Shown: positions 4,962-35,257, counted from the stretch's first letter. The stretch: DNA of 64,000 nt from Candidatus Nomurabacteria bacterium (GCA_020632155.1 JACKGE010000001.1:381302-445301), one strand, 5' to 3'. The notes: a model not told the origin generated them from the sequence alone. Numbers and translations: made by a program.

Positions 4962-4999
4962 TAGCCCATTATAGGCTAATTACGCTATACTGTCTTTGC

Positions 5000-5683: not shown

Positions 5684-5685
5684 CC

Positions 5686-9699: not shown

Positions 9700-9740
9700 G
9701 GTGGTCAGTGTTTAGATTTTGGGGCGCTATAATGTAAGGA

Positions 9741-11189: not shown

Positions 11190-11279
11190 GCTCGGGGGAG
11201 CTTTTTGCACAGGGTGGCGAAATAAGATGTCTCTGGTATGCTGTACCCTAATCTTATTGGTAGCAAACATCATTAACGT

Positions 11280-15186: not shown

Positions 15187-15208
15187 ATTCCTTACTTCAT
15201 TCGACACA

Positions 15209-15240
15209 CAAAACCCGCTCTCCACAGCGGTGTTTTGTTT
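15209..15240 (+). terminator. rho-independent terminator after histone-like gene
   Basis: AAAACCCGCTCtccacAGCGGTGTTTTGTTT: GC stem plus U-run. Confidence 0.6.
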
Positions 15241-15278
15241 GTCTGAGCAGGCGCTTTAGCTCGGTTTCTTTCTGTGGT

Positions 15279-17804: not shown

Positions 17805-17838
17805 TTACCATTGACGTTTAAATAAAAACGCGTACTCT

Positions 17839-18183
17839 TTGTACATGATAAAAATGATCTCACGAGTTCTCATCGGAGCTCTTGCGCTACTATTGGCAGC
17901 TAATTTTATCCCTGGTATTGAGGTTATGGGCCTCTACACAGCGATCATTGCTGCTCTTATTTTAGGACTCCTCAATATGATTGTGCGTCCCGTACTTATT
18001 GTCCTTACATTGCCAGTGACTATTTTGACGTTGGGTTTGTTTACCTTTGTTATTAATGCAGCCCTCTTTTGGTTCGCAGCTTCGTTCATTGAGGGTTTTG
18101 CTGTAGCGGGATTTGTGCCAGCACTCCTCGGTTCAATTTTTGTATCTATAGTCAGTGCCATTGGTAACGCACTCATATCATGA
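17839..18183 (+). CDS. small 4-TM membrane protein, phage-holin-4_2 / DUF360-like
   Basis: 114 aa and highly hydrophobic. Pattern ...NFIPGIEVMG...IIAALILGLLNMIVRPVLIVLTLPVTILTLGLFTFVINAALFW... resembles the DUF360 family. Confidence 0.5.
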   Translation: MYMIKMISRVLIGALALLLAANFIPGIEVMGLYTAIIAALILGLLNMIVRPVLIVLTLPVTILTLGLFTFVINAALFWFAASFIEGFAVAGFVPALLGSIFVSIVSAIGNALIS

Positions 18184-18815
18184 TGCAGACGATCGCCAAA
18201 CTCCTGCCGGCGATTGGTTTTGTTCTAGTGTGTACGCTACTCTTGCTCTTCACTGAGCCGGTTGCCTATATGAAGACACTTGTCTCAGGTATGAACGCGG
18301 TGAGCTACATTAGCTATGTACTCATGCTCACTTTGGCAATCGTACTCATGCCACTTACGGTAATGCCACTTATACCAGTGGCCTCTGCAGTAATGGGCCC
18401 GTTTGCAACAGCACTCCTTAGTATCGTTGGGTGGACCCTCGGTGGGGTATTGGCGTTTTTGATCGCCCGCTATGTTGGCCGTCCAGCCCTCGAACGTTTT
18501 GTAAACCTAGGTACACTCGACGAGCTCACTGCTCGTATACCACAAAATAGTCGCTTTATGGTTATTGTGTTGCTGCGCCTCACACTGCCAGTCGATATTG
18601 TTAGTTACGCCATTGGATTTACATCAAGCGTCAGTCTACTTGAATACACATTGGCTACGTTAGTCGGAGTCACTTGGTTTTCATTTGCGTTTGCGTACCT
18701 TGGTGACGCCCTTCTTACGGGGAACAAACCACTGCTCATAGAACTAACAGGCGCATCGCTGCTCATCTTTTTTGGTGCGTGGTTGTGGCTTAGGCGTACA
18801 CACCGTCGGAACTAG
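18180..18815 (+). CDS. TVP38/TMEM64 (DedA/SNARE-associated) family membrane protein
   Basis: LIARYVGRPALERFVN...RLTLPVDIVSYAIGFTSSVSLLEYTLATLVG matches the conserved DedA core. Length 211 aa. Confidence 0.6.
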   Translation: MMQTIAKLLPAIGFVLVCTLLLLFTEPVAYMKTLVSGMNAVSYISYVLMLTLAIVLMPLTVMPLIPVASAVMGPFATALLSIVGWTLGGVLAFLIARYVGRPALERFVNLGTLDELTARIPQNSRFMVIVLLRLTLPVDIVSYAIGFTSSVSLLEYTLATLVGVTWFSFAFAYLGDALLTGNKPLLIELTGASLLIFFGAWLWLRRTHRRN

Positions 18816-18856
18816 GTTGCTTAGTTTTATGGCCGTGGTAGGCTAGGAACTCACAT

Positions 18857-19825
18857 ATGTTTGTTGATGAAATACGTATAAAAGCCAAGGCTGGAGACGG
18901 TGGTATTGGCGTTGTTCGCTGGCGACATGAGAAATTTAAGCCTAAAGCCGGCCCTGCTGGTGGCAATGGCGGCAATGGAGGTAGTGTCTATTTGCGGGCT
19001 GTCAAAGACCTTGGGTTGTTGTCAAAGTATACCGGTGCCAAAGAGTTTCGTGCTGAAAGCGGTGAAGCTGGCCGTGCTCTTAGCCAGTACGGAAAAAACG
19101 GTGAAGACCTGTATATTGATATTCCGGTTGGATCAAAAGTGACCGACGAAGAGCGAGGTTTTAGCTATGAGCTGACCACCGAAGGAGAGACTGCACGCAT
19201 CCTTAAAGGTGGTCGCGGCGGACTTGGTAATGAATACTTCAAGTCATCAACCAATCGTTCACCGGAAGAATCCACAGAAGGAACCCTTGGGGAGGAAGGA
19301 AGCTTTTTTATTGAGCTCAGTTTGGTTGTCGATGTTGGACTTGTTGGAAAACCAAACGCTGGTAAATCCACACTCCTTAATACACTTACCAATGCTCGTT
19401 CGACAATTGGTTCGTATCCTTTCACAACGCTTGAGCCCCACCTTGGGGCACTCTACGAGTTTACTATCGCTGACATACCGGGGCTTATTGAAGGGGCTGC
19501 AGAAGGGAAGGGGCTTGGCCATAAGTTTTTGCGACATATATCACGCACCAAAATGCTCCTCCACCTCGTTTCACTTGAAGAAGATGATCCAAAAAATGTG
19601 TATTATACAATTTCTAAAGAGCTATCTAACTACTCAAAAAGTATATCTGATAAAGAAGAGTGGATTATTTTAACTAAAAAAGACCTTGTTTCAAAAGACA
19701 TTATAGAGGCAACTTGCAAATCTATTGACAAAATTAACAAACGTGTGTTTGTAGTGTCTGCAGAAAGCGGGGAAGGGATAAAAGAACTGCAAGATTCTCT
19801 TGTTTTGCACTTACGGGAAGGGTAG
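18857..19825 (+). CDS. obg: GTPase Obg/CgtA
   Basis: MFVDEIRIKAKAGDGGIGVVRWRHEKFKPKAGPAGGNGGNGGSVYL (Obg fold glycine-rich N-domain). G-domain motifs GKPNAGKST and DIPGLIEGA. Confidence 0.9.
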   Translation: MFVDEIRIKAKAGDGGIGVVRWRHEKFKPKAGPAGGNGGNGGSVYLRAVKDLGLLSKYTGAKEFRAESGEAGRALSQYGKNGEDLYIDIPVGSKVTDEERGFSYELTTEGETARILKGGRGGLGNEYFKSSTNRSPEESTEGTLGEEGSFFIELSLVVDVGLVGKPNAGKSTLLNTLTNARSTIGSYPFTTLEPHLGALYEFTIADIPGLIEGAAEGKGLGHKFLRHISRTKMLLHLVSLEEDDPKNVYYTISKELSNYSKSISDKEEWIILTKKDLVSKDIIEATCKSIDKINKRVFVVSAESGEGIKELQDSLVLHLREG

Positions 19826-19835
19826 TATAGGGGCC

Positions 19836-21248
19836 ATGAGTACGTATACACCCACCATTGGTATCGAAGTTCACGCTGAACTCAATACAAAAAGTAAGAT
19901 GTTTTGTTCATGTGTGAACGATCCGCATGCAGCTGAAGCCAACACACACATTTGTCCAGTCTGTTTAGCACACCCCGGAACCCTTCCAGCGGTAAATAAA
20001 GAAGCAGTCAAAAAGGTTCTGCTTGTTGGCAAGGCACTTGGCGGCACGCTTGCTGTCTATAGTGAGTTTGATCGTAAAAATTATTTCTATCCGGATATTC
20101 CAAAAGCGTATCAGCTCAGTCAGTATGCGTACCCATTTGTCTCAGGGGGTGAACTGGCCGGAGTGGCAATTACTCGTGTGCACCTCGAAGAGGATACCGC
20201 GCGCAGTCAACATGAGATGGAGGGAAGCATCGTTGATTTTAATCGAGCCGGAGTACCACTTATGGAACTGGTTACGGAGCCAGTCATACATGACGCCAAG
20301 ACAGCTGCTACTTTTGCTAAAGAGCTACAGCTGCTTTTACGAACACTTGGTATTTCAGGAGCAAATATGGAAAGAGGGGAGATGCGGGTAGAGGCCAATA
20401 TATCTATTAGTGATACAGATGAGCTTGGCACTAAAGTTGAAGTTAAGAATTTGAACTCCTTTAAGGCGGTGGAGCAAGCAATAGAATACGAGATCAAGCG
20501 ACAAACGGAACTATTAAATAGTAACGAACGTATTATTCAAGAAACCCGCGGGTGGGACGAGAACAAAAGTCGCACATTTTCGCAACGTTCCAAGGAAACA
20601 GCTGAAGATTACCGATATTTCCCAGATCCAGACATTCCCAAGTACGACCTCAAAAAAGTGCCAGAATTTGAAAATTCTCGTCTACAGGAGATAATGCCTA
20701 AATTACCCCTAGAAATAAGGGAGCAATATCTCGGCTACGGTGTAAAAGGTGAACAAATCGAGATACTACTAGCTGATAAGCAGCTGCTCAACTTTATGGA
20801 CGCTGTAACAGCTGAAATGGCCTCGAATGACAAGAAAGTGCGGCAAGCAGTAAATTACGTAACATCTGACGTTGTGGGATTGTTACAAGATTCGTCTGAA
20901 CTAACATTAGAGCTGAGCTCCGCCAGTTCATTTGCATCGCTTATCACCCTTCTTGATAGTGGTGAAATAAATTCACGCGTAGCAAAAGATCTTCTCGCTG
21001 AGGTATTGCGTCATGGAAGTGATCCAAAGCAATTAGCCGAAGAAAAGGGCTTATTGCAGGCAAGTTCTACTGATGAGCTACTGCCGATCGTGACCACTGT
21101 AATAGCAGAAAATCCAGAGGTAGTTAGCGAATACAAAGGAGGGAAGGAGGCCGTACTCCAGTTCTTGGTTGGACAGGGTATGAAGGCCACCCGAGGGAGC
21201 GCCAACCCAGCTGTTCTTACTGAACTCCTTAAGGAGCAAATGAAATAG
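19836..21248 (+). CDS. gatB: Asp-tRNA(Asn)/Glu-tRNA(Gln) amidotransferase subunit B
   Basis: TIGIEVHAELNTKSKMFCSCVNDPH...ICPVCLAHPGTLPAVNKEAV is the canonical GatB N-terminus. ATG at 19836 is preferred over the upstream in-frame M. Confidence 0.9.
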   Translation: MSTYTPTIGIEVHAELNTKSKMFCSCVNDPHAAEANTHICPVCLAHPGTLPAVNKEAVKKVLLVGKALGGTLAVYSEFDRKNYFYPDIPKAYQLSQYAYPFVSGGELAGVAITRVHLEEDTARSQHEMEGSIVDFNRAGVPLMELVTEPVIHDAKTAATFAKELQLLLRTLGISGANMERGEMRVEANISISDTDELGTKVEVKNLNSFKAVEQAIEYEIKRQTELLNSNERIIQETRGWDENKSRTFSQRSKETAEDYRYFPDPDIPKYDLKKVPEFENSRLQEIMPKLPLEIREQYLGYGVKGEQIEILLADKQLLNFMDAVTAEMASNDKKVRQAVNYVTSDVVGLLQDSSELTLELSSASSFASLITLLDSGEINSRVAKDLLAEVLRHGSDPKQLAEEKGLLQASSTDELLPIVTTVIAENPEVVSEYKGGKEAVLQFLVGQGMKATRGSANPAVLTELLKEQMK

Positions 21249-21263
21249 CGTTTGTGCTATACA

Positions 21264-21296
21264 AAAAACCGCGAGATATCCACTCGCGGTTTTTTG
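21264..21296 (+). terminator. rho-independent terminator after gatB
   Basis: AAAAAACCGCGAGatatccactCTCGCGGTTTTTTG. Confidence 0.8.
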
Positions 21297-21324
21297 TCAC
21301 CACCTGTATAATAGGGCACAGCAT

Positions 21325-22209
21325 ATGGAAACTATCTCGGTTAATGGAGAAACCTTTATAAAAGCCAACATTCTGGCCCGAGAACTCGGCTACACAGCAG
21401 ACTATGTTGGGCAGCTGTGTCGTGGTGGCAAAGTGAAAGCAGAGCTCGTGGGGCGAAGTTGGTTTGTAGAACCAGAATCCCTTCGGTCTCATCGTAAGGG
21501 TCGTTATCGAAGTGTAGCTAAGAAATCTAAGCTACAGATAGAAAAGCAAACTAAGACCACTGAGACAGTACCGGCCAAGGAAGGGTCAACTCACATACCG
21601 ATCAATAAGCATTTTTACAGTCGTGGTGTACAAAAGAATGTTCGGTATGAAATGGACGAAAGCGAATTGATGCCAGCAATCAAGCCCACTGACAAAGGAG
21701 AGTCTTCACGTTTGCAAGTACATTTGGCAGAAGCGCGGCAAATGAACATAAAAAGCACTGAAAAAGCCTATAAAATGGAAGCTACAGAGCTCCCAACATT
21801 TAAACGTGACGGCACCCTTACGATAGCGGAAGCTCCTGAACTTGCAGAGAATCCAGTATCAGAAGCAAAAAAAACGCCAAAAAAGGGTACGCACAAGAGC
21901 TCAGAAGCAAAATCGCGGCACGTAAACGTACATAGTAGTGATAGTGCGGAAGTGGTTCCTATTGCCACTGCAGTTAAAACACACAAAAAAAGGACCGTAA
22001 CAGCAAAGCGCAGGACAGCTCAAAAGGGCCATGGCCTTAGAGCGCTGTGGTGGGTGTTTGTGTGGGTGGCAGTCAGTGCTCTTGGGCTGATTATAGCTAC
22101 GCTTGAGTACCACACAAGCGTAGGCGGTAACGTTTCTGACAGTTATTCGTTTGAGCCAGAAAATATAAAAACAATTTTTGAAATAGCAAAAATGTACCTA
22201 AAAATATAG
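21325..22209 (+). CDS. membrane-tethered protein with N-terminal excisionase/MerR-like HTH (HTH_17-like), one TM segment and extracytoplasmic C-domain
   Basis: N-terminus ARELGYTADYVGQLCRGGKVKAELVGRSWFVEPESL. Single hydrophobic helix LRALWWVFVWVAVSALGLIIATL near the C-terminus. Paralog of 22575..23294. Confidence 0.55.
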   Translation: METISVNGETFIKANILARELGYTADYVGQLCRGGKVKAELVGRSWFVEPESLRSHRKGRYRSVAKKSKLQIEKQTKTTETVPAKEGSTHIPINKHFYSRGVQKNVRYEMDESELMPAIKPTDKGESSRLQVHLAEARQMNIKSTEKAYKMEATELPTFKRDGTLTIAEAPELAENPVSEAKKTPKKGTHKSSEAKSRHVNVHSSDSAEVVPIATAVKTHKKRTVTAKRRTAQKGHGLRALWWVFVWVAVSALGLIIATLEYHTSVGGNVSDSYSFEPENIKTIFEIAKMYLKI

Positions 22210-22574
22210 TTTTTTCGTGTAGCCGAGATTTATTTTGCCAAGCCTACATAGCTGGTTGTGTAAAAATACAGGCCTTGTTTGCCCTGATGGTGTGTAAGGG
22301 CTGATTGTTCCGGTTTGTAACTGTAAGGTCCTTATTTCTTGTCAGGGCTTTTTCTCTAAGTACAAGGGAGAGTAGGGTTGCTGGTTTCGGAGGCGGCGGC
22401 TCAGGCCTGTAGGCGGGTGCTGAACAGGTTGTACTTCACATAAAAAAGAAGTGGTCTTGATCGAGTAGAGGTCTCCCTGCTGCAGGACAAACAGGTGTTT
22501 TTTACTGTCCACATATGGAGCGTTTTTGAGCCAAAAAAAAGGCGAAATCACTATAAAATATATAGCAATATCGT

Positions 22575-23294
22575 ATGAGCTTCGATCCTTCACCACAGGC
22601 TAAATTCATACCCGTTAAAGAAGCCGCCAAACTGGTCGGCTACACGACCGACTACGTCGCTAAGTTGGCGCGGGAGGGAAAGGTCGATGCACGGCGCAAT
22701 GGTCGACAGTGGTTCGTTGGCCGCGACTCAGTGAAACTCTTTTCACTGCAGCAAGAGGAGCTCAAAAAAACTCGTCAACAAGAATTAAAAGAGCAGCGTC
22801 TTAGAGAGCGTCATGGTGAGGTGAGTACGGCATCGCCATCGGTAGCAAAAATCGAGAAACAAGAAAGTGGAGCGCATGAAGCGCTCGCGACTACGGCCGT
22901 GGTGTTTGCTTCAATCTGCATTATGACCGTCCTCTCACTTTCTGTAGTTGAAAATAAGATCTCGTTTTCAGACATAGGGGCGACGATTGCTGGACTTGCA
23001 GCACGCGTTGGTAGTGTCGCAAATGTTATAGACGGGACTGATTGGTGGCCGCCACAAGGACTCCATCAGGTTGCTCTTGATGGGGAGGCAGTTGGTGGCC
23101 TTAGAGACCTGCCACAGGTAGATAGCAATGAAGCCCGCATCTTGCTTCCGAACAATGAGAATGCTACGTCTGCCGCACGGTATTTTTCTGACGAGGTCAT
23201 GGTGAAGACCAGTGCGAATGGTGCGGTAATAACACCGGTCTTTCGCAGTGGTACTTCAGAACAGGCGTTTGTGATTGAGGATAGTACCGAGTGA
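22575..23294 (+). CDS. paralogous membrane-tethered HTH protein
   Basis: N-terminus AKLVGYTTDYVAKLAREGKVDARRNGRQWFVGRDSV (same motif as 21325 ORF). TM helix ALATTAVVFASICIMTVLSLSVV, then a ~110-aa C-terminal domain. Confidence 0.55.
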   Translation: MSFDPSPQAKFIPVKEAAKLVGYTTDYVAKLAREGKVDARRNGRQWFVGRDSVKLFSLQQEELKKTRQQELKEQRLRERHGEVSTASPSVAKIEKQESGAHEALATTAVVFASICIMTVLSLSVVENKISFSDIGATIAGLAARVGSVANVIDGTDWWPPQGLHQVALDGEAVGGLRDLPQVDSNEARILLPNNENATSAARYFSDEVMVKTSANGAVITPVFRSGTSEQAFVIEDSTE

Positions 23295-23304
23295 GTTTTT
23301 ACGT

Positions 23305-26010
23305 ATGAGCAAGCGTATCATTATCAACCGAATACTACACACAACTACACTTGGTCTTTTGCTCGTGCTTAGCCTTAGTCTCCTTAGCTCTCTTGCGGAG
23401 GCGGCGCCAAACTACCAGATCAACTATCAAGGTAAGCTCCTCGATAGTTCTGGCTCTCCGGTGGCAAATGGTTTATACGACATGGAGTTTAAGCTCTATA
23501 CCGTTCCTACCGGTGGCAGCGCCATTTGGACCGAAACACGCACTGGTGGTAATCAAGTGATGGCCACAAGCGGCCTGTTCTCAGTGATGCTCGGTGAAGT
23601 AGCCTCTCTCTCTGGAGTTGATTTTGATCAAACGCTCTACCTAGGAGTGAATATCGAGGGTGACGGTGAGATGTCACCGCGCAAAGTGCTTGGCTCCGTA
23701 CCGGCTGCATTTGAGGCGGCACACGCAGCTGATAGTGATACCGTGGGCGGTGTTGCTTCTTCCTCGTTCCTCAGAAGTGATGCAGCTGACACAGCTTCAG
23801 GCTTGCTGACATTCACTGGAGGACTTGTCAGTACAGCCTCTAGTACCATCACTGATCTTACGTTCACTACTGCTACTGCTACAACGCTCGTCATAAACGG
23901 CGAAGCCTTTACTGACTTTACGGGCACTGCACTTGTAAACACCGGTGGGGTACTCTCAGTTTCAACCTCGTCACTGGCAGTGTACTTTGCGTCGACGTCT
24001 GATTTTAATACCGAAGCAAAGTTGGAAAGTATTTTGACTGACGTCACCAACATATACACCAACAACGACGGTTCCCTCAGTGACGACGACCTCAGCAACA
24101 ACAGCACCACCGACCTCGCTGAAGGTACTAACCTCTATTTCACGACTGCTCGCGCTTCTACCACTGCAGCGCAAGTCCTCTTTGCTACCACAACCCTTCC
24201 AAACCTTACGACCTTAGCCAACCTTTCTACCGTTGGCACCATCACCTCCGGAACGTGGAACGGCACCGCCATCGGTGACGCCTACCTCACCAAGACTGGT
24301 GACTGGACCGGCACCTTCGACGGACAGGAGGGGAGTTACTATCTCAATGCCGACAATCTCACCAACCTCGATGCTAGTGATATTGCTCTTACCAACGGTT
24401 ACGTTCTGCGCGGTTCAGCAGGTGGCACCGCTGAGGCCACTAGCTCACTCTTTATTACTGACGCTGGAAATGTGGGGATTGGGACAACGACGCCAGATTA
24501 CCCACTTGAAGTGGTTGGCCGTACCGAACTCCACGGCATCACTGTTGTTGACGGCCGTTCTACCAGTGTTGATGGCCCTCACTTCACTGTTAGTGATGAT
24601 GCCAACCTGCCCCTGTTTGACATCTCGTCTTCCTTTGGCCAAACCTTTATCAACAGCAACAAGAATGCCCGCTTCTTTGACAGTGTCTACCTTGCTGACG
24701 AGCTCCAAGACGTCACTCAATCAGCTGGTTCCAATGGGTACATTCTACAGTCAACTGGTACCAGTACGCTGTGGACCGACCCTACTAGTCTTGGTTTCAT
24801 TGCTACTACCAGTGGCAACTGGACCGGCACCTTCGACGGACAGGAGGGGAGTTACTACCTAGACCTCGCCAATGCTACGGGTGATACTGACGACCTCACC
24901 GAAGGCAGCACCAACCTCTTCTCTCAGTGGGGCACCTCTGGCTCTAACGTCTACTACAACAGTGGAAATGTGGGGATTGGGACGACAAGTCCGCAGACCA
25001 CCTTGCATGTCTCAGACACCAGTGCAATTTTGCGACTTGACCCGACCGGAGCAAGTGGGGATGCTTCCATCCAATACTACGCTGACGCTGCTGCTCGCTG
25101 GTCAAGTGGTGTAGATAATGATGATAGCTACAAATACAAGATATCTACCGGATCTGCTCTTGGTAGTGGTGAGGCGCTGACTATTGATACCTCCGGCAAC
25201 ATTGGTATCGGAACCACAACACCAGATCAAATACTTACGGTTGCGGGTAACGCATATATAACGGGCGGAGCTACAACCAGCGACCTCTATGTTACCGATA
25301 CGTTCAGTGGGGCCGGTTTAACCGCTTGTAGTGGTTCTGCCTCTAAACTCCTGTGGAGCTCTACAACACAGCAATTTGTTTGTGGAGCTGACGCTGGCGC
25401 TGGCGGGGGTATCACCGCACTTGGTGTGGCTGGTTCGTACCAAAGCGGTTCTACGCAGACCCTTGCCACTTCCAGTGATACTAACCTAGAACTCACTATT
25501 GTCTCAAGCGGCGATACACATACATTTACACCGGTTTGGAACGGCACACTCGCTGTTGGACGTGGTGGTACCGGCGCAGGTTCTTTCAACGCTGGTGAAC
25601 TCCTCGTCGGCAACGGTACCGGCGCCCTTACCTCGACCACTACCGCTGGACTCAAAGCCACATTGGCGCTCGACAATGTAGAGAACACCGCGCTCTCGAC
25701 GTGGCTGGCTCAAGCAATATCACGACACTCGGCACGATTGGTACCGGCATCTGGAACGGCACTGCCATCGGTGACGCCTACCTCACCAAGACCGGCGACT
25801 GGACCGGCACCTTCGACGGACAGGAGGGGAGTTACTACCTCAACGCCGACAATCTCACCAACCTCGATGCTAGTGATATTGCTCTTACCAACGGCTACGT
25901 CCTTCGTGGTTCAGCTGCTAACACTGCCGAAGCTACCAGCTCGCTCTTTATTACTGACGCTGGAAATGTGGGGATTGGTACTACGACGCCAGATTACCCA
26001 CTTGAAGTAG
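23305..26010 (+). CDS. giant tail-fibre-like surface protein, 5' segment (signal peptide; reading frame is lost at ~25696 and the remaining ORF is out-of-frame translation)
   Basis: MSKRIIINRILHTTTLGLLLVLSLSLLSSLAEA signal peptide. Repeated GNVGIGTTTP and GTWNGTAIGDAYLTKTGDWTGTFDGQEGSYYL modules. After nt ~25696 the ORF translates the alternative frame of the repeat (…ISRHSARLVPASGTALPSVTPTSPRP…). Confidence 0.6.
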   Translation: MSKRIIINRILHTTTLGLLLVLSLSLLSSLAEAAPNYQINYQGKLLDSSGSPVANGLYDMEFKLYTVPTGGSAIWTETRTGGNQVMATSGLFSVMLGEVASLSGVDFDQTLYLGVNIEGDGEMSPRKVLGSVPAAFEAAHAADSDTVGGVASSSFLRSDAADTASGLLTFTGGLVSTASSTITDLTFTTATATTLVINGEAFTDFTGTALVNTGGVLSVSTSSLAVYFASTSDFNTEAKLESILTDVTNIYTNNDGSLSDDDLSNNSTTDLAEGTNLYFTTARASTTAAQVLFATTTLPNLTTLANLSTVGTITSGTWNGTAIGDAYLTKTGDWTGTFDGQEGSYYLNADNLTNLDASDIALTNGYVLRGSAGGTAEATSSLFITDAGNVGIGTTTPDYPLEVVGRTELHGITVVDGRSTSVDGPHFTVSDDANLPLFDISSSFGQTFINSNKNARFFDSVYLADELQDVTQSAGSNGYILQSTGTSTLWTDPTSLGFIATTSGNWTGTFDGQEGSYYLDLANATGDTDDLTEGSTNLFSQWGTSGSNVYYNSGNVGIGTTSPQTTLHVSDTSAILRLDPTGASGDASIQYYADAAARWSSGVDNDDSYKYKISTGSALGSGEALTIDTSGNIGIGTTTPDQILTVAGNAYITGGATTSDLYVTDTFSGAGLTACSGSASKLLWSSTTQQFVCGADAGAGGGITALGVAGSYQSGSTQTLATSSDTNLELTIVSSGDTHTFTPVWNGTLAVGRGGTGAGSFNAGELLVGNGTGALTSTTTAGLKATLALDNVENTALSTWLAQAISRHSARLVPASGTALPSVTPTSPRPATGPAPSTDRRGVTTSTPTISPTSMLVILLLPTATSFVVQLLTLPKLPARSLLLTLEMWGLVLRRQITHLK
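24241..24775 (+). repeat. ~530-bp near-identical intragenic direct repeat, copy 1
   Basis: Near-identical to 25746..26275 (encodes TWNGTAIGDAYLTKTGDWTGTFDGQEGSYYLNADNLTNLDASDIALTNGYVLRGSA...GNVGIGTTTPDYPLEVVGRTELHGITVVDGRSTSVDGPHFTVSDDANLPLFDISSSFGQTFINSNKNARFFDSVYLADELQDVTQSAGS). Confidence 0.8.
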
Positions 26011-28553
26011 TTGGCCGCACCGAACTCCACGGCATCACTGTTGTTGACGGTCGTTCTACCAGTGTTGATGGCCCTCACTTCACTGTTAGTGATGATGCCA
26101 ACCTGCCCCTGTTTGACATCTCGTCTTCCTTTGGCCAAACCTTTATCAACAGCAACAAGAATGCCCGCTTCTTTGACAGTGTCTACCTTGCTGACGAGCT
26201 CCAAGACGTCACTCAGTCGGCCGGTTCTGCTGGCTACGTGCTTCAATCTACCGGTACTAGTACGCTGTGGGTCGCAACAAGCAGTCTCGGAATCAGCGCT
26301 GGTGGCGGTGGTACGGTGAGTAGCGTTGCAGCGAGTGTCCCGACTGGTTGGACAGTGACTGGTAGTCCGATAACTGCTACAGGAACTCTTGCGTTTGACT
26401 ACGACACCGGCTACGGCGCCGTCCTTATAGCCAGTACCACTGACTGGCAAACCGCCTACAGTTGGGGCAACCATGCCGCTGCCGGCTATCTCGACGGTAC
26501 TGACATCGGTTCAACCGTCCAAGGCTACAATGCCAACACCACCATCCTCGGTTCTACCATTAATGCTAACGAACTAGCGAGCGAAGACTTCGGTGACTTC
26601 ACCTGCAATGGCACAACGTGCTCCCTTGATGCTGACACCGTGGCGGCCTCTGAAATGGCCGACAGTGATCACGGCTTCTTCTCATACAGCTCCGGAGTAG
26701 CATCTCTCGACACCGATGGCCTCACTAGTGCCAACCTGTCTGGTGCGCTCACTAATGAGACTGGTACTGGAAGTGTCGTGTTCTCAAGTTCACCGACTCT
26801 CACCACACCAGATCTTGGTACTCCAAGTGCAATTACTCTAACCAATGCTACCGGCCTCCCGCTCTCAACTGGCGTCACTGGCACGCTTGATATCGCCAAC
26901 GGTGGTCTTGGCATCTCATACACCGATCCAAATGCTGATCGCATTCTCTTCTGGGATGATAGTGCTGGTAGATTTTGCCAACCTGACAGCTTCAACCGGA
27001 CTCACCCTTACTGGCACTAACCTCACTGTCCGTAGTGCCTCAGAATCTCAGACTGGTATTGCCGAGTTTGCTACTCAAACCGAGGTCAATACCGGAACCG
27101 ATACTACGCGTGTGGTACGCGCCAATACCCTTGGTGCGTGGCCTGGCACCACCAACCTCACCACCCTCGGCACCATCACTACCGGAACGTGGAACGGCAC
27201 CGCCATCGGTGACGCCTACCTCACCAAGACTGGTGACTGGACCGGCACCTTCGACGGACAGGAGGGGAGTTACTACCTAGACCTCGCCAATGCTACGGGT
27301 GATACTGACGACCTCACCGAAGGCAGCACCAACCTCTTCTCTGATGGACCACCTCTGGCTCTGATATTTGCAGTGGAAGTGTTGGAATTGGTATTGACGA
27401 GTCCATTCAGCACAACCACTAAAACGCTCACCGTTGATGCTGGAGGGGTTCATCTGGCAATATGCCGGCCTTGAACTACGTGGTGGCAAATGGTAATTTG
27501 CTGGAAATAGTGAAATTGGTTTTTTGCTGGAGAGGACGCTTACGAGCACTCGCGTATGAGCTGATGTAACGGGTGGCGGGATCTTGGTTGGAAATCGGCC
27601 TTTATACCAACCAGAATTCTGCAGCGAATCTCACAGAACGAATGCGCGTTAACTATCTTGGTAACGTCGGCATCCGGGACGACAGGTCCGTGAAGCTTGA
27701 CGTGGTTGGGAATATCCGTGCATATACTACTACAAGTAATAACGGCCTTATTATTTCATCAGGAAGTACCAATACTGGTGCTCGAAACTGGTTCGTTGGC
27801 GCAAACACTCCTGTGGCTTATGGTGATTTTGCTCTGCAGCAGTCAAATGCACTGGGTGGTGATCCACGCACTGCTGGTACGGCACGGTTGTATACGCTCC
27901 TCCGGGTCGGCATCACCACCACTCCATCAGAACTCCTGCATGCGCCTGGCGATGCCCGTATAGAAGGACGCTTTATGACAGCACTTCACCAAGCGGTGCT
28001 CTCGGCTACGTCCTCCAAACTACCGGCACGGAGAGTACCATGGTGGCGATCAAGTCTTGGCCGTGAACACCAACACAATTAACTGTGAAAGCGGGTAGAG
28101 GTTATATATTTGATGGCAGCAACAGTGGCACGCTCTCTTCTGGAACTTGGCACTTTGATTCACTTACAGATGATACAGTTAGATGATACATATAACACCC
28201 TCGGCATATCTCGACAGTACTGTAGCAGATGGCGCTCTTTCAATGCCAACGTCTCACTCTACTCGGCAGCGCTATAGACCCACTGGATCTTGCAGACGAT
28301 GATTTCGGAGACTTTTCTTGCTCCAGTGGTATCTCTGTACCTTTGATAACGACACCATCGCTCCAGCCGAGATGGCTGATGCTGACACGGCTTCTTCTCA
28401 TACAGCTGGAGGGTAGCTTCGCTTGACAGGTGGCCTTACCAGTGCAAACCTCGCATCTGCCCTCACTAATGAAACTGGTGGCAGTGCGGTGTTTCAGCTT
28501 CGCCAACTCTCACTACCTAACCTCCAGTACACCAAGCGCTGTCACATTAACTA
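25697..28553 (+). pseudogene. frameshift-riddled, degenerate paralogous segments of the giant surface-protein gene (or assembly errors in a collapsed repeat)
   Basis: Homolog-guided comparison shows 1-nt indels at ~25696 (tggcctggc -> tggctggc), ~26962 (aacttt -> agatttt), and ~27345-27474 (premature stop). Fragments 27573..28082 and 28229..28768 still encode recognisable modules (GNVGI, DLADDDFGDFSCSSG, TNATGLPISTG) but in shifting frames. Confidence 0.5.
25746..26275 (+). repeat. ~530-bp intragenic direct repeat, copy 2
   Basis: See copy 1. Only scattered synonymous or conservative differences between the two copies. Confidence 0.8.
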
Positions 28554-31500
28554 ATGCAACTGGTCTCCCAATTAGCACTGGCCTTAGTGGTGCTGGAACC
28601 GGCGTCCTTACTGCTCTTGGTGTTAACATCAGGTTCCTTTGTGGTCAATGGTGGCGCTCTTGGCACCCCATCCTCAGGTACTCTCTGCAACGACTGGCTT
28701 ACCACTCTCTACCGGGTGACTGGCACACTTGGTATTGCCAATGGCGGTCTTGGTGTCTCATACACTGATCCAAATGCAGACCGTATCTTATTCTGGGACG
28801 ATAGTGCTGGCAACTTCGCTAACCTTGTCGCCTCAACTGGTCTTACTTTGTCGGGCACCAACCTAACGGTCCGAGCTGCTTCAGAATCACAAACTGGTAT
28901 TGCTCCGCAAAGGAGTTTGCTACTCAAACCGAGGTCAATACCGGAACCGATACTACGCGTGTGGTACGCGCCAATACCCCTCGGTGCGTGGCTGGTCACC
29001 AACCTCACCACCCTCGGCACCATCACTACCGGAACGTGGAACGGCACCGCCATCGGTGACGCCTACCTCACCAAGACTGGTGACTGGACCGGCACCTTCG
29101 ACGGACAGGAGGGGAGTTACTACCTAGACCTCGCCAATGCTACGGGTGATACTGACGACCTCACCGAAGGCACAACCAACCTCTTCTCCCAGTGGACCAC
29201 CTCCGGCTCTGATATCTACTACAACAGTGGAAATGTTGGTATTGGGACGACGACGCCGGACCAGCCCCTGGTCGTCCTTGGTGGTACTGCAAGTACAGCA
29301 CCAAACCTACTCACTATCCAGTCAAATGAAGGTGGTAGCACCAGTCCGGGCGATGTGTACGCCGGTATTCAGTTTGGTGTATATGGGGGAGAGAATGGCA
29401 GTGGTGCACAGCCAGTAACCGCCTTTATCAAAGCGGTTGATACGAGAGCTGGCGCTACTTCAAATGAAGACGGGGGACTTTCTTTTGGAACCCTGAATTC
29501 CACCGGCGGTCCGACAGAACGGATGATTATTACTCACGATGGTAAGGTCGGTATTGGCACCTCTGATCCGTCTGACACTCTCAATGTTGCTGGTAACACC
29601 GACATTACCGGTGAAGTGCAGATTGATGGAACATTGTCTATCGGTGGCGTCGCGCCGAACAGTTCACGCAGTCTCTATATAAATGACTCATTCACTGATG
29701 ATGCAGCTACGTACGGCATATATAACCTAACCAACTTCGGCTCCTCCATAAGTGGAAACCGTACACCATATAGTAGTTTCAATAAACTTACGGTCGACGG
29801 GTATACCTTAAATTCTAATACTCTTAACCCAGCGGGTGTGTATGGCGAAGTCGAGATATTAAATGGCAATGAAGATGTTGGTAGCGCCCGTGGATTATAC
29901 TCGGTTGTAGATAACCAAAATACCAGTGGTACATTGGACGCTAGTTACGCCATTGATGTACTTACCCAAACTTCGGCTAATTCTACTACTACCAACGCGT
30001 ATGCGTTTAGAAGCAATTTAACCAATAACGGCTACATCGGTAACTACTACGGTATTTATCTCACGGATGTAGTAGAGGGAGGGCAGGGCAATGCCTACGC
30101 GTTCTGGACCAATGAAGGAGACGTTGTTCTTGACGGCGACGGCGACGGTGTTGCAGGTGGTACCGATGTTGGCACCAACCTTTTCTTTGGCGAAAGTCAA
30201 GATGCAGCAATTTGGTATGACGGCGCCGATTTTAACATTGATCCGCAAATCGTTGGTTCAGGTGATCTGCTCATACCAAACGGCAACGTTGGTATTGGTG
30301 ACCCGACACCTTCATCTAAACTTGATGTGTACGAAAATAGTACCAATGCCGCTGGTGCGAGTGGACTTACACTAGAACAAGCTGGTACTGGTGATGTAAA
30401 CATTTCATTCCTACTGACGGGTACACGACGTTGGAATGTTGGTGTCGACAACAGTGATAGTGATAGGTTCAAAATCCTCTCCGACAATAGCAATGATTAC
30501 AGTGGTTCAGGACTGGTGATTAACACGAATGGTAATGTCGGCATCGGCGCAGCCGACCCCTCTGTGGCTAAACTGCAAACGTACGTGAATGATACAAGCT
30601 CGTACCAAAATCTCATTGAGCAGGACAGTACTGGTGACTCGGCACTCTCGTTCCTTTTAACAGGCACTAAACAATGGATCGTTGGTATTGATAATAGCGA
30701 CGGTGACAAGTTCAAGATCGGCGAAGGAGGTGCTGTTGATTCTGAAACCGCACTAACCATTGATACGTCTAGTAATGTTGGTATTGGTATCACTGACCCA
30801 AGCACCTACTTACAAATTACCCGAGCATCAAACGCGTGGCCAGCGACTTCGGGAACCACTCAAAGTACTGGCCAATATATGCGCCTCGGAAACAATACTG
30901 GTTCTGTTCTTGATATCGGTGGCAACAGTACCTCAGGCCAGTGGCTACAATCCACAAACGCCACCAATCTTGCCACCAATTATCCGCTACTCCTAAATCC
31001 AAATGGTGGCAACGTCGGTATCGGTGATTCCTCTCCAGCCAGTCTATTCACCGTCGGTAACGGCGACCTGTTCCAAGTAAACTCCTCTGGTGACATTATC
31101 ACGCAGTCTGTTGGTGTCGATGCACTGGAGAGCGAAGACTTCGGTGACTTCACTTGCAATGGCACGACGTGTACTCTCGACGCTACCTATCTGACGGGCA
31201 ACCAAACCATCACCCTTTCTGGAGACGTCTCTGGTTCTGGTGCTACCAGCATCAGCACCACTCTGGCGGCTGACACCGTTGATTATTCAAATATCGATTA
31301 CTCAGCAGTCATTGGTAGCGACCCATCATTTGGAGCTAGTGAGACCTTCTTTGGCACTACCGGTGTCATCTTTGAAGGATCGTCTGCTGATACATTTGAA
31401 GGGCTCCTTACCACCACCAATATTACCGGTTCAGATAAGACATGGACATTGCCAAATACCACCGGCACCATCGCGCTCCTAACGAGTGCTATGACCGGTA

Positions 31501-34500
31501 CTTTTGACGGCAACAACTTCGGCGGGGGAGCAATTGGTGCCGGTGACCTTCTCTACGGTTCAGCTGCCGGTACCATTTCAGAACTTTCTGGCGCCGCGAC
31601 GGGCAACGTGCTCCTTTCCGGTGGTGCAACTGGGGCCCCAAGCTGGGGCAAGGTTTCTGCCACAGCACTCAGCGCCGCTGACTTCGGTGACTTCACCTGC
31701 AACGGCACCACCTGTACACTCGACGATACCTACTTAGCAAACGGAGACCACTGGACCCTCACCGGTGACCCGTACCTCTATTACACAGGAGGGAATGTGG
31801 GTATTGGTACGTCGTCTCCAACCAATCTTCTCTATATAAACGGCGGTAACATCGGTACCTCGACGGCAACGGTTGTTATTGATGACGGCCTCGGTTCGCT
31901 TGGTTTGACGCCGCCAACTCCATATAACGCTTCCCTTAAACTCTATAACGGTATTGGTGATAACTCTGTAGTACTCCGCTCGATGTCTGATTCCAGTGGT
32001 TCTAATAATGGGGAGAATACCGCCGAATTGGCATTTACCAGCTTGAGTGAAGCGTCCGTTGGTACAACTGACTCCGCACCGTTCTACCTCAAGACCAACA
32101 ATACCTCACGTCTCTATATTGACTCCTCCGGCAACGTTGGTATCGGTACCACGAGTCCACAACGATTATTGCACTTGAGTACGATTGGTCAGGCAACGGG
32201 TGCGGTAGCACGTATGGAGGCACCAACTGGATATGACACTAAATTTGAATTTTGGGAAGATGGAGTTGAATTGTGGGAATTTGGTGCTGATACAAGCGCA
32301 GATCTGTTTGCGATTGGACCGACCGTTAATACAGCGGATTTTGTCATCGACTCCTCCGGCAACGTCGGTATTGGTACTACAAGCCCAAGTACGTTACTCC
32401 AGATTGGAGACGGTACGAATGATGCTATCCAAACATTCACCGATGGCCTCGGCTCACTACAAGCTACTATTGATTTTCAAACCTCCGGAACAGGAGCCCC
32501 ATCTAATCCAGATGGATGGAAGTTGCGTTTGTACGGGCAGAGTACTTATGATGCAGCTGATTATGGTATCGGCATCAACGGCAATACACTCTGGTTTAAT
32601 ACAGGCGGTACAAACATAGATTTCTATGACAGTGGTAGTCAGATTGCAACCTTCCAAAACGGTAATTTTGGAATTGGCGACACCTCACCTGCCGCACTTC
32701 TCACTGTCGGCAATGGAGATCTCTTCCAAGTGAACTCCTCCGGTGTTGTTACGGCCGGTACGTGGCAGGGAACAGCACTTACAGACGCCTATGTAAGTGA
32801 TACCCTAACAGCATCAACATGGCAGGGGTATACCATTAGCGGCGGTGATGACCTTGATACCGTCTCAGTACCAACCGGCCGTAAGGTAACAATTGGCGGT
32901 TATGCAGGTGTGTCACCAACCAATACTCCAAACTCAGAACAGTATGGTGCTCTTATTACTGCTCACGATGGTTCACAGCAAAATCAGCTTTGGTTTGGTG
33001 GTACAACCTCCGGCGATATTTATGTACGTCGGCGCGATAGTGGTACTTACTACGCGTGGACTCGCTTCTGGAATGATGCGAACGATGGCTCTGGCAGTGG
33101 CCTTGATGCCGATACCCTTGACGGCGTCGACTCCTCTGCTTTTAGTCAACTCGGTGCTTTCATTGATCCAGTTGATCTCGCTGACGATGACTTCGGTGAC
33201 TTCACTTGTACGACCGGTTTCTGTTTCCTTGATAACGATGTGGTAGCAGCGGCGGAAATGGCTAATGGTGACCACGGCTTCTTCTCATACAGTGGTGGTG
33301 TCGCTTCGCTTGATACCGGAGGTCTTACTTCTGCCAACCTTATTAGTGCACTCACTAACGAGACCGGTTCCGGCAGCGCAGTCTTCTCTGCGTCACCAAC
33401 TTTCACAGGTACGGTAAACGCCGCTGCCGCCACACTTTCAAGCACTCTCACTCTTTCCGGCACTGCCGCCAATATAGCGCTTGGCTCCAACTACCTCTCT
33501 GGTGATGGTGGTGACGAAGGCATTGCAATTGACTCAAGCGGTAATGTGACACTAACTGGCGATCTAACCGGAACTACCGACACCAAATTGGCCCTTACAC
33601 ATGCTGGTAACGAAACCGGATTCTCCTTCATACAGACCAATGTGCTCTCTGGCGAACAGGATGTCTTTGTGATCGAGGACCAAGATGGCGGCGGCGGCGG
33701 ACAAGACGAAAGCTCGGTTTTAAAAGTCATCAAGTCTGGTGCTTGGAACAGTGCGGATGATGGCTCATCGCTTATAGAGTTACTCTACAGCGGTGGTGGT
33801 AGCTTAAACCCTGACCAGCAGTTCTATATCACCGGTCGGACCACCGACGAAGGTGCTCTGACATGGGGTGTATCACAAACGGATGCTGACATCTGGAGCA
33901 CCGGTTCCTTGCGGCTTGGCGCAACAGGTGTTGATTGTTCTGGTACCAACGCACCATGTTTCAATTCACCAAGCATCGCCTTTGAAACCTCCGGAAATTC
34001 GTATATCAATACCGGTGGAAACTTTGGTATCGGCACAACGACGCCAAGCGCACTTCTCCATATTGACGCCAGTGCTGCTGCTGGTTCTGCCTTTAGGATC
34101 AGTACCACCTCAGCCACTTTCTTTGACGTCGATGCAGTGACGGGTGTTTCTACCTTTGGTGACTCAAGTGGTACTGGTGATGCGGTATTCCAGTTTGCTA
34201 ATGATGCTAATGCATGGGCCGTCGGGTATAAAGCGGCAGACCTATCATTTAACATCGCTTCGGGTACTGACCTTACCGGTACCATTGCATTATCTATAGC
34301 TAAAAGCGGTAATGTAACTATCGTTGGCTCGGCAGTGACTTGTGTACTCGGTAATGGTTCGAGCGCTACCAGCTGTTCATCATCTGATGAGCGACTCAAG
34401 GACGAGATCACTACCTTAAGTGGTACGAGCACTCTTGAACAACTGCGCAGACTTCGCCCAGTCTCATTCTTCTGGAACGATTGGATGCAGGAGAACGGTT

Positions 34501-35249
34501 CTACTGACGGTATCCAGTACGGACTCATCGCTCAAGAAGTAAAGGAGGTGTTCCCGTCGCTGGTGATGCGCGACCCAAACACAAACTACTACCGTCTTGA
34601 CTACCAAAACCTCATATCACCAACCATCAGTGCGGTACTTGAGCTCGACATGAATCTGGAGAGCTTGGCATCGAGCACAATGCCACTTCTTGATGAACGT
34701 GATGAGGAGACCTTTGCTGGCCGCTTCTTTGCTCGTTTGGTGACATGGCTCGGTGACACCGCCAATGGCATCGGCGACCTCTTTGCTGATCGAGTGCGTA
34801 CCAAGGAGATATGCGTTGAAAAAGCCAATGGTAGTGCCGTCTGTGTTAATGGAGATGAACTGGAGTCACTCCTTAATGGCCAAAGTACCGGCGGTAGTGG
34901 GGGAAGCGGAAATGTTGGCGGTGGTTCGACCGCTGGCGGCAACACACCACCTTCGGACGACCCTGTCGATGATACAACCGGCACCAGTACCGATGACGGC
35001 AGTACCTCGGGTGACACTACAGATGGAACCACAGGTACATCAACTGATTCGGGTACTGGTGATGGTGAAACTACAGACGGTGGTGATTCTATTCCTGATC
35101 AAACTGACACTATTGAGGGAGATAGTGGTAGCCAAGGTGATGGTACGGATGCTTCGAACGATCAATCAGGTGATAACAACACCACGGATGCTACTGATAC
35201 TGATTCGAATGGAGCGGAGGAGCCGGATAACACATCCACTGGCGGTTAA
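28554..35249 (+). CDS. giant tail-fibre-like surface protein, 3' segment (2231 codons), ending in an intramolecular-chaperone / peptidase S74-like autoprocessing domain and an acidic T/D/G-rich tail
   Basis: Dozens of GNVGIG(T/D)(T/S)SP beta-repeat units. Recurring DFGDFTCNGTTCTLD cysteine-pair modules. Near the C-terminus CSSS-DERLKDEITTL...YGLIAQEVKEVFPSLVMRDPNTNYYRLDYQNLISPTISAVLEL matches the S-D autocleavage and chaperone consensus of phage tail-spike/fibre C-terminal domains. The ATG at 28554 is not a credible start: the first ~60 codons are out-of-frame relative to homologous copies. The gene is most likely continuous with 23305. Confidence 0.7.
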   Translation: MQLVSQLALALVVLEPASLLLLVLTSGSFVVNGGALGTPSSGTLCNDWLTTLYRVTGTLGIANGGLGVSYTDPNADRILFWDDSAGNFANLVASTGLTLSGTNLTVRAASESQTGIAPQRSLLLKPRSIPEPILRVWYAPIPLGAWLVTNLTTLGTITTGTWNGTAIGDAYLTKTGDWTGTFDGQEGSYYLDLANATGDTDDLTEGTTNLFSQWTTSGSDIYYNSGNVGIGTTTPDQPLVVLGGTASTAPNLLTIQSNEGGSTSPGDVYAGIQFGVYGGENGSGAQPVTAFIKAVDTRAGATSNEDGGLSFGTLNSTGGPTERMIITHDGKVGIGTSDPSDTLNVAGNTDITGEVQIDGTLSIGGVAPNSSRSLYINDSFTDDAATYGIYNLTNFGSSISGNRTPYSSFNKLTVDGYTLNSNTLNPAGVYGEVEILNGNEDVGSARGLYSVVDNQNTSGTLDASYAIDVLTQTSANSTTTNAYAFRSNLTNNGYIGNYYGIYLTDVVEGGQGNAYAFWTNEGDVVLDGDGDGVAGGTDVGTNLFFGESQDAAIWYDGADFNIDPQIVGSGDLLIPNGNVGIGDPTPSSKLDVYENSTNAAGASGLTLEQAGTGDVNISFLLTGTRRWNVGVDNSDSDRFKILSDNSNDYSGSGLVINTNGNVGIGAADPSVAKLQTYVNDTSSYQNLIEQDSTGDSALSFLLTGTKQWIVGIDNSDGDKFKIGEGGAVDSETALTIDTSSNVGIGITDPSTYLQITRASNAWPATSGTTQSTGQYMRLGNNTGSVLDIGGNSTSGQWLQSTNATNLATNYPLLLNPNGGNVGIGDSSPASLFTVGNGDLFQVNSSGDIITQSVGVDALESEDFGDFTCNGTTCTLDATYLTGNQTITLSGDVSGSGATSISTTLAADTVDYSNIDYSAVIGSDPSFGASETFFGTTGVIFEGSSADTFEGLLTTTNITGSDKTWTLPNTTGTIALLTSAMTGTFDGNNFGGGAIGAGDLLYGSAAGTISELSGAATGNVLLSGGATGAPSWGKVSATALSAADFGDFTCNGTTCTLDDTYLANGDHWTLTGDPYLYYTGGNVGIGTSSPTNLLYINGGNIGTSTATVVIDDGLGSLGLTPPTPYNASLKLYNGIGDNSVVLRSMSDSSGSNNGENTAELAFTSLSEASVGTTDSAPFYLKTNNTSRLYIDSSGNVGIGTTSPQRLLHLSTIGQATGAVARMEAPTGYDTKFEFWEDGVELWEFGADTSADLFAIGPTVNTADFVIDSSGNVGIGTTSPSTLLQIGDGTNDAIQTFTDGLGSLQATIDFQTSGTGAPSNPDGWKLRLYGQSTYDAADYGIGINGNTLWFNTGGTNIDFYDSGSQIATFQNGNFGIGDTSPAALLTVGNGDLFQVNSSGVVTAGTWQGTALTDAYVSDTLTASTWQGYTISGGDDLDTVSVPTGRKVTIGGYAGVSPTNTPNSEQYGALITAHDGSQQNQLWFGGTTSGDIYVRRRDSGTYYAWTRFWNDANDGSGSGLDADTLDGVDSSAFSQLGAFIDPVDLADDDFGDFTCTTGFCFLDNDVVAAAEMANGDHGFFSYSGGVASLDTGGLTSANLISALTNETGSGSAVFSASPTFTGTVNAAAATLSSTLTLSGTAANIALGSNYLSGDGGDEGIAIDSSGNVTLTGDLTGTTDTKLALTHAGNETGFSFIQTNVLSGEQDVFVIEDQDGGGGGQDESSVLKVIKSGAWNSADDGSSLIELLYSGGGSLNPDQQFYITGRTTDEGALTWGVSQTDADIWSTGSLRLGATGVDCSGTNAPCFNSPSIAFETSGNSYINTGGNFGIGTTTPSALLHIDASAAAGSAFRISTTSATFFDVDAVTGVSTFGDSSGTGDAVFQFANDANAWAVGYKAADLSFNIASGTDLTGTIALSIAKSGNVTIVGSAVTCVLGNGSSATSCSSSDERLKDEITTLSGTSTLEQLRRLRPVSFFWNDWMQENGSTDGIQYGLIAQEVKEVFPSLVMRDPNTNYYRLDYQNLISPTISAVLELDMNLESLASSTMPLLDERDEETFAGRFFARLVTWLGDTANGIGDLFADRVRTKEICVEKANGSAVCVNGDELESLLNGQSTGGSGGSGNVGGGSTAGGNTPPSDDPVDDTTGTSTDDGSTSGDTTDGTTGTSTDSGTGDGETTDGGDSIPDQTDTIEGDSGSQGDGTDASNDQSGDNNTTDATDTDSNGAEEPDNTSTGG

Positions 35250-35257
35250 CATTGTGT

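Follow-up and report, generated by a model that had tools for sequence, protein, structure and literature searches.

Near-identical repeats in a giant Paceibacteria fiber gene are probably old coding modules homogenized by gene conversion

A 64,000-nucleotide stretch of Candidatus Nomurabacteria bacterium DNA (GCA_020632155.1 JACKGE010000001.1:381302-445301; here called the window) contains a giant gene for a putative surface fiber at 23305-35249. A first-pass annotation of the window had reported near-identical long repeats inside this gene. We think it likely that the repeats are duplicated coding modules of one giant fiber gene, that gene conversion has homogenized them, and that the breaks in the deposited reading frame are mostly errors.

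We mapped the repeats by BLASTN self-comparison of 22-39 kb together with repeat finding, and the modules by TBLASTN. The self-comparison gave off-diagonal matches above 90% identity, as the first-pass annotation had led us to expect. The long pair (24248-24774 and 25744-26270) is 92.2% identical over 527 nt, ungapped, at an offset of 1496. Most of its 41 mismatches (34) fall at third codon positions, and most are T/C and C/T. The segment at 24218-24344 matches 27152-27278 and 28999-29125 at 93.7% each, and 24818-24986 matches 29083-29251 at 93.5%. A larger gapped pair, 26813-27391 and 28658-29245 (84% identity, 23 gaps), was absent from the earlier list. Its core consists of 27064-27130, which is 100% identical to 28913-28979 over 67 nt, and 27150-27341, which is 99% identical to 28997-29188. 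This pair lies within an old duplicated segment with copies about 1.85 kb apart, the first of which carries a DFGDFTCNGTTC..HGFFSYSSGVASLD module, the AEFATQTEVNTGTD motif, and one copy each of modules A and B (A3 and B2). Module A (38 amino acids; LGTITTGTWNGTAIGDAYLTKTGDWTGTFDGQEGSYYL) has four full copies with 95 to 100% amino acid identity; in addition, 24754-24861 holds half a copy and 32742-32828 a diverged one. Module B (FDGQEGSYYLDLANATGDTDDLTEGSTNLFS...) has three copies, one of them broken. TBLASTN found no copies of either module elsewhere in the 64-kb window. Tandem Repeats Finder reported nothing here, since it handles periods up to 500 nt and these repeats are dispersed. The repeat matches are far beyond chance. 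Positions given previously were accurate to within about 10 nt, except that a start of 25746 for the second long copy would give an offset of 1505 and put the copies out of register by about 9 nt; the shorter modules recur as claimed, but the starts of module B were 6 to 10 nt off.

The gene is best explained as encoding a secreted homotrimeric surface fiber of the S74, tail fiber, or MAT (mosaic adhesive trimer) type, so the name fiber in the first-pass annotation was well chosen. There is a single signal peptide at its 5′ end and a single S74 domain at its 3′ end. AlphaFold2 predicts a helix at residues 10-26. Amino acids 25-100 match the Bdello_MAT_N profile NF053851 (E values of 9.6e-9 to 1.7e-10) at 35-41 bits, with a curated cut-off of 60, and the same profile matches all 16 of the 16 Patescibacterial N termini tested. 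The AlphaFold2 model of this domain has predicted local distance difference test scores of 86-95 over residues 40-130, and no close fold was found for it in the PDB. The fiber body has 14 GN(V/I/F)GIGxxxPxxxL β-helix capping-loop motifs (typically GNVGIGTTxPxxxL). Phmmer searches of the PDB matched it to Bd2133 (8OND; E value of 1.1e-6, 163 residues aligned), Bd3182 (8OJN; 9.7e-5), and Bd2439 (8OL4; 1.4e-3). The S74 domain was recognized by PF13884 with an E value of 2.8e-14 and 53.6 bits against a cut-off of 22, and its catalytic motif, SDERLK (SDxxxK type), starts at 34383. This domain would drive folding of the trimer and then cleave itself. The tail that follows it is about 115 amino acids long, and similar tails end the homologues that we read (e.g., P0002, P0014, and P0030). 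Because the S74 domain cuts itself off, the tail would go with the chaperone fragment.

The repeats had been described as lying inside one gene, which is not how the sequence stands. The deposited fiber gene is split over at least five open reading frames (ORFs; 23305-26010, 25701-27020, 26845-27474, 27573-28082, and 28554-35249) and becomes a single gene only after repair. NCBI lists the coding sequences (CDSs) MCB9811704.1 (901 amino acids) and MCB9811708.1 (2,231 amino acids, "tail fiber domain-containing protein"), with H6783_ locus tags, and the three consecutive accessions between them are probably three more CDSs. When the 27573-28082 ORF was used as a query for homologues, the only hit was the genome's own 146-amino-acid CDS, which has no bearing on whether the frameshifts are real. 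We built a frame map from three-frame translation and TBLASTN of 118 homologues. It contains at least 15 frame changes within about 3.3 kb of repeat-dense sequence (25.7-29.0 kb; Table 1). Two further ORFs bear on how this should be read. HK-STAS-PATE-30 and -31, sister metagenome-assembled genomes (MAGs) from the same pipeline, have uninterrupted fiber ORFs of 4,148 and at least 4,315 amino acids, respectively. These intact ORFs sit at the same kind of locus, so it is plausible that the window gene, at about 3,980 codons, is a single gene. They lie at 7259-19702 (contig L008) and 8120-21064 (contig L019) and rank with the largest genes of genomes this small.

We judge it probable that the indels are consensus errors of a long-read assembly and not decay. 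The window belongs to the MAG HK-STAS-PATE-26, which was assembled with Unicycler from Nanopore and Illumina reads (5 contigs, 60.5% completeness). Unicycler fills breaks in the short-read graph with long-read consensus, and the indel density here, about 1 per 100 nt, matches that of unpolished Oxford Nanopore consensus. The errors would sit at points where the short-read graph is interrupted and the reads used for polishing have no unique placement. At the first frameshift, the window reads TGGCT. L001, a short-read contig obtained independently from a different sample (ENA, assembled with MEGAHIT) and 99.3% identical here, reads TGGGCT and has a continuous ORF (…ALSTWAGSSNITTLG…). The context is also in frame in L169, one of two contigs (L168 and L169) from Joint Genome Institute (JGI) metagenomes that represent another Paceibacteria lineage and carry a positional counterpart of the gene in the same gene order. 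Nine other short-read contigs from the same population as the window, at 98.6% identity or more and with about 25 kb aligned, have zero indels relative to it. Several indel sites are short homopolymer runs (G2/G3, T4, C4, and A3). Furthermore, 2.4 kb upstream and 6.2 kb downstream of the indel cluster stay open. Such clean flanks would not be expected from neutral decay that followed the first shift, and this pattern therefore favors consensus errors.

The alternative is that the gene is truly inactivated by real frameshifts; the repeats would then be relics in a pseudogene that is decaying or has been switched off. We regard this as unlikely. It would account for the number of frame changes and for the in-frame stops at 27.3-28.6 kb, and it agrees with the annotation of separate CDSs by NCBI, with the intact genes that the same pipeline delivered for the sister MAGs, and with a G-run frameshift in L168, from the other lineage. 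It could also explain two compensated pairs of indels between 28683 and 28988. The first is a -2/-1 pair at 28683-28723. The second combines an 8-nt insert at 28905-28912 with an extra C in the C-run at 28977-28980, and the intervening stretch, with the conserved EFATQTEVNTGTDTTRVVRANT motif, is out of frame. However, decay should spread, but homology is retained all along 25.7-26.97 kb and 29.0-35.25 kb, and both intervals are clean. The second long copy, which lies past the first shift, is still under strong purifying selection, with a ratio of nonsynonymous to synonymous divergence (dN/dS) of 0.065. Neither the absence of the first shift from L001 nor an indel density that fits unpolished long-read consensus is what decay predicts.

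It is improbable that the repeats themselves, or their near-identity, are an artefact of metagenome assembly, in the form of strain haplotypes laid in tandem, collapsed graph segments that were reused, or mis-mapped polishing. The MAG is a hybrid assembly from a complex community, short-read contigs break within the repeats (L001 ends at 25915), and the 67-nt patch of 100% identity is bounded by indels, all of which would fit such an origin. But L001 contains the first long copy at 100% identity, as well as the first copy of module B and the first 170 nt of the second long copy. This part is therefore not an artefact of the window's assembly. The units that lie about 1.85 kb apart are 56 to 73% identical outside the tract described below, whereas strains are about 99% identical to each other. 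Similar repeats also occur in 20 of 120 homologues from many sources.

The divergence between copies is uneven. For the long pair, overall synonymous divergence (dS) is 0.32, but over its 527 nt, patches with dS of about 1.9 adjoin others where dS is 0.08 (Table 1). Its longest mismatch-free run is 164 nt, and no run of that length arose in 100,000 permutations that preserved the mismatch counts per codon position (P<1e-5). In the larger pair, 27064-27341 forms a tract of about 280 nt that is 98 to 100% identical to its partner, with dS of 0.011, and the sequence on either side is 56 to 73% identical. This mosaic is best explained by short-tract gene conversion under purifying selection, of which it is a classic sign. 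The unconverted patches are saturated at synonymous sites, and the duplication is therefore old. Both copies of these old internal duplications have persisted under strong purifying selection. Recent duplication alone, with no conversion, would explain the 92 to 99% identity between copies, but it is very unlikely given the saturated patches, the mismatch-free run, and the abrupt edges of the 98 to 100% tract. The first-pass annotation had offered recent duplication or ongoing gene conversion, and of these the mosaic supports gene conversion. The gene grew by internal duplication of a 527-nt unit (two copies), a segment with copies about 1.85 kb apart (two copies), and a connector of about 115 nt (four or five copies), and short-tract conversion would have repeatedly re-homogenized patches of 160 to 280 nt. 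Such conversion between copies would account for their striking nucleotide identity. L001 may point the same way. It is 99.9% identical to the window upstream, but in the second long copy it has the base of the first copy at 8 of 12 diagnostic sites (25746-25915), including all six from 25838 on; this is one contig end only, so a chimera is possible.

A dedicated diversification system (a diversity-generating retroelement, slipped-strand phase variation, or silent-cassette antigenic variation) is scarcely credible: Patescibacteria often carry retroelement-based hypervariation and the degraded sequence at 27.4-28.6 kb is imaginable as a silent cassette, but a Pfam scan of the larger window ORFs found no reverse transcriptase, integrase, or transposase, the mismatches are third-position transitions and not adenine specific, the runs at the frameshifts are only 2 to 4 nt and too short for phase-variable tracts, and modules A and B are confined to this gene within the window. 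We also rejected a prophage origin or site-specific recombination, with no integrase or phage gene among the larger window ORFs scanned, and programmed frameshifting, for which there are too many shifts.

Long, nearly identical repeats within the gene are a trait of this family, and those described here are ordinary for it. In an ungapped diagonal scan, an internal repeat of at least 80 amino acids occurred at 90% identity or more in 20 of 120 homologues, and at 70% or more in 49 of 120. Repeat-based length variation also occurs in the family, as seen in the lineage of L168 and L169. Across 7.6 kb that take in the upstream genes and the 5′ portion of the fiber gene, these two contigs agree at 99.88%, and over 3.4 kb at the 3′ end of the gene their identity is 99.1%. 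Between these parts, L168 carries a 2,851-nt array in which a 735-nt unit is repeated 4.07 times, and L169 has an unrelated 361 nt. The units, each of which begins with TGNWTGTFDGQEGSYYL, are 99.6 to 100% identical (100% over the 300 nt compared per copy; 99.6 to 99.9% over the whole array). The left junction lies inside a TG(N/D)WTGT module (GxWTGTFDG), and on the right side the L169 homology resumes in TLGT..TSGTW, just 5′ of the next copy of the module. Because the junctions fall at or near the module, it is probably the homology that was used. By extension, the conserved connector of the window gene (..TGxWTGTFDGQEGSYYL..) would be a homology patch for gain, loss, and amplification of cassettes, and the length and content of the fiber would thus differ between close strains. 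For the window's own species, a search for a second contig spanning 26-30 kb found none, only one partial sister contig. L168 also differs from L169 by a single base in a G-run at 11158 (GGCGGGTACC versus GGC-GGTACC), which splits its fiber gene into ORFs of 1,723 and more than 887 amino acids. This lesion is of the same kind as the one near 25704 in the window.

Several points count against our interpretation. Errors and real mutations were told apart indirectly, from assembled sequence. The pipeline is not always damaging, because it gave intact ORFs of more than 4,000 amino acids in the sister MAGs. Some of the indels (+8, -6, and -2) are not simple homopolymer slips, and selection could also yield the two mutually compensating pairs. 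The end of L001 that resembles the first copy could be chimeric, though this would need about 124 nt of exact overlap. The 98 to 100% tract comes from the MAG alone, where collapsed graph segments could slightly inflate its identity. Copy number variation was seen in a distant relative of a different species (its GatB is 58% identical). Finally, a role of such fibers in host attachment in Patescibacteria is a prediction from sequence.

The window gene resembles several known systems. Like the S74 subgroup of MAT fibers in Bdellovibrio bacteriovorus (e.g., Bd3182), it encodes a signal peptide followed by a conserved β-rich N-terminal domain, a long body with VGxGTxxPxxxL capping loops (it aligns to 8OND, 8OL4, and 8OJN), and a C-terminal S74 domain with an SDxxxK motif, in a mosaic architecture that is prone to swapping (MAT family features are from Caulton et al. 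2024 [PMC10769870]). It differs in that its host is a Patescibacterium and not a predatory Bdellovibrio, its N-terminal domain scores below the 60-bit family cut-off, and its protein, at about 3,980 amino acids, has roughly four times the length of the MAT proteins (about 900-1,150), so that the fiber would be well beyond the ~55 nm modeled for Bd3182. It also varies by internal duplication and conversion, and not only by the tip swapping of MAT fibers. Trimerization, surface display, and ligand binding of the window fiber are predicted only from its signal peptide and S74 domain.

Phage tail fibers and tailspikes, such as the K1F endosialidase and T5 pb1, likewise have an S74 chaperone/protease and conserved linkers that allow modular exchange. 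The AEFATQTEVNTGTD..R.V and (F/L)DGxxxSYYL motifs are presumably those of phage fiber shafts. Unlike these phage genes, the window gene is chromosomal, lies among housekeeping genes (SecA, Obg, and GatB) whose order is kept across Paceibacteria, has no phage gene nearby among the larger window ORFs scanned, and encodes a signal peptide and a cell-proximal N-terminal domain. Some repeat-rich surface adhesins vary in length through recombination among repeats within the gene, including the streptococcal M and alpha C proteins, staphylococcal SasG/Aap, and the Mycoplasma MgPa repeats. They too have near-identical long coding repeats, homogenization by conversion, and gain or loss of copies between strains, as seen here between L168 and L169. 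In contrast to their repeats, the window modules are dispersed 0.5 to 1.9 kb apart and do not form a uniform tandem array (L168 is the exception), and the fold would be a trimeric β-helix fiber with an S74 chaperone, without a known context of immune evasion.

On sequence grounds, the window gene is a new and very large Patescibacterial member of the S74/MAT-type fibers, which are predicted to be trimeric. We found no paper linking S74 or MAT fibers to Patescibacteria in the literature searched. The fiber would most likely be an adhesin for recognition of, or attachment to, host or partner cells. Here, a conserved giant gene of the ultrasmall, host-dependent Patescibacteria is tied to the structurally characterized MAT/S74 fibers of the predator Bdellovibrio. 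Its duplication of modules, conversion, and amplification of cassettes make it a concrete candidate for host range determination and would explain the broken assemblies. More speculatively, Paceibacteria might carry giant MAT relatives as host recognition organelles at a conserved SecA-Obg-GatB-x-HTH-fiber locus (HTH, helix-turn-helix), with the GxWTGTFDGQEGSYYL connector as a recombination handle. If so, cassettes would be duplicated, converted, and swapped at the connector, and strains of one community would differ in fiber length and specificity. This would be a cellular counterpart of host range switching by phage tail fibers, and part of the frameshift cluster could be real population heterogeneity. 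The split record (two proteins seen directly, probably five CDSs in all) is probably artefactual, and annotation surveys would then miscount or mis-size such proteins.

Table 1. Features of the fiber gene, with window coordinates
Feature	Position	Strand	Basis
Whole fiber gene as reconstructed, ~3,980 codons (~12 kb)	23305-35249	+	ORFs, TBLASTN frame map
Signal peptide or N-terminal membrane helix (MSKRIIINRILHTTTLGLLLVLSLSLLSSLAEAA)	23305-23406	+	Translation
Conserved β-rich N-terminal domain, MAT_N type	23377-23694	+	NCBIfam NF053851
Module A, copy 1 (...GTWNGTAIGDAYLTKTGDWTGTFDGQEGSYYL)	24232-24345	+	TBLASTN
Long repeat, copy 1: module A1 plus β-helix unit with capping loop	24248-24774	+	BLASTN; identical in L001
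dS 0.23	24250-24396		Long pair
dS 1.96	24397-24450		Long pair
dS 0.08	24451-24717		Long pair
dS 1.83	24718-24774		Long pair
Module B, copy 1, preceded by module A half copy (24754-24861)	24832-24987	+	TBLASTN, BLASTN
Frame 1	up to ~25707	+	Frame map
Frame 3	25635-27008	+	Frame map
Frameshift 1, frame 1 to 3	25699-25711	+	Window ACGTGG-CTGG versus L001 TGGGCTGG
Module A, copy 2	25728-25841	+	TBLASTN; context in frame in L169 positional counterpart (STWTGSTNITTLGT...)
Long repeat, copy 2, read in frame 3, past frameshift 1	25744-26270	+	BLASTN, dN/dS 0.065
Old duplicated segment, copy A	26573-27404	+	Repeat spacings of 1716-1849 nt; BLASTN pairs
Frameshift 2, frame 3 to 1, at run of four T (GGTAGATTTTGCC)	26964-26979	+	Three-frame translation, TBLASTN
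Frame 1	26974-27342	+	Frame map
Inferred gene conversion tract, 98-100% to 28913-29188	27064-27341	+	dS 0.011; flanks 56-73%
Module A, copy 3	27166-27279	+	TBLASTN
Module B, copy 2, broken: 1-nt loss near 27343 plus 6-nt gap	27250-27392	+	TBLASTN
Degraded stretch: at least 10 further frame changes plus in-frame stops	27343-28625	+	Frame map
Frame 3	27345-27392	+	Frame map
No recognizable frame (~160 nt)	27393-27554	+	Frame map
Frame 3	27555-27968	+	Frame map
Frame 2, with stops	27969-28335	+	Frame map
Old duplicated segment, copy B	28274-29251	+	Repeat finding, BLASTN
Frame 1	28336-28494	+	Frame map
Frame 2	28495-28625	+	Frame map
Frame 3	28626 onward	+	Frame map
Two compensated frameshift pairs within ORF 28554-35249	28683-28988	+	Alignment, translation
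Module A, copy 4	29013-29126	+	TBLASTN
Module B, copy 3	29097-29252	+	TBLASTN
Peptidase_S74 intramolecular chaperone/autoprotease domain	34383-34565	+	Pfam PF13884
Acidic low-complexity C-terminal tail, rich in T, D, and G	34900-35246	+	Translation

The host is an activated sludge MAG classified as Paceibacteria (class); UBA9983_A; UBA2163; OLB19 (genus), with a GC content of 0.480 (GC content and taxonomy are from the supplement of Liu et al. 2021 [PMC8518188]). It is a tiny, probably host-dependent member of the Patescibacteria. The window is cellular and not viral, with genes for SecA, Obg, GatB, GAPDH, transketolase, RF-1, ribosomal proteins, PheRS, and a glycan synthesis cluster. The order SecA, small membrane protein, Obg, GatB, unknown protein, HTH protein, and giant fiber (15279-35249) is complete in L168 and L169, and ORF sizes in L007, L009, and L011 agree with it. 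A scan of genome contigs found no conspecific genome, only distant Patescibacteria, and a scan of metagenome contigs found no close relative of the fiber gene, the best partial matches being 65 to 83% identical. Look-ups of exact protein sequences for the window ORFs 28554-35249, 25701-27020, and P0001 gave no record, in an index that leaves out partial genes of short contigs. A co-occurring strain from the same treatment plant's time series (L004) is 96% identical to the window over 22195-23353, with 6 gap columns. Therefore, the population is not clonal.

Directly 5′ of the fiber gene, 22575-23294 (plus strand) encodes a 239-amino-acid protein with a hydrophobic segment and an excisionase-type HTH (TIGR01764; E value of 3e-5, below the cut-off). 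A 236-amino-acid counterpart is in the same position in L168 and L169 (5287-5997), and the homologue P0118 is annotated as a fusion, "helix-turn-helix domain-containing protein." The HTH protein may be a regulator or a membrane partner. Directly after the fiber gene, 35252-38239 (plus strand) encodes 995 amino acids with two glycine-rich domains (PF21722), Laminin_G_3, and DUF2341. Six of the seven short-read contigs obtained via the neighboring gene at 38245-38805 begin inside it (36,698-37,795). It is therefore a second gene at which assemblies break, and it is probably variable. Farther upstream, 3135-13475 is an O-antigen-like surface glycan cluster, which is notable for a reduced genome. 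It includes three or four GT4 glycosyltransferases, a Wzx-type flippase, an FkbM methyltransferase, and a Wzy_C ligase fused to TPR repeats.

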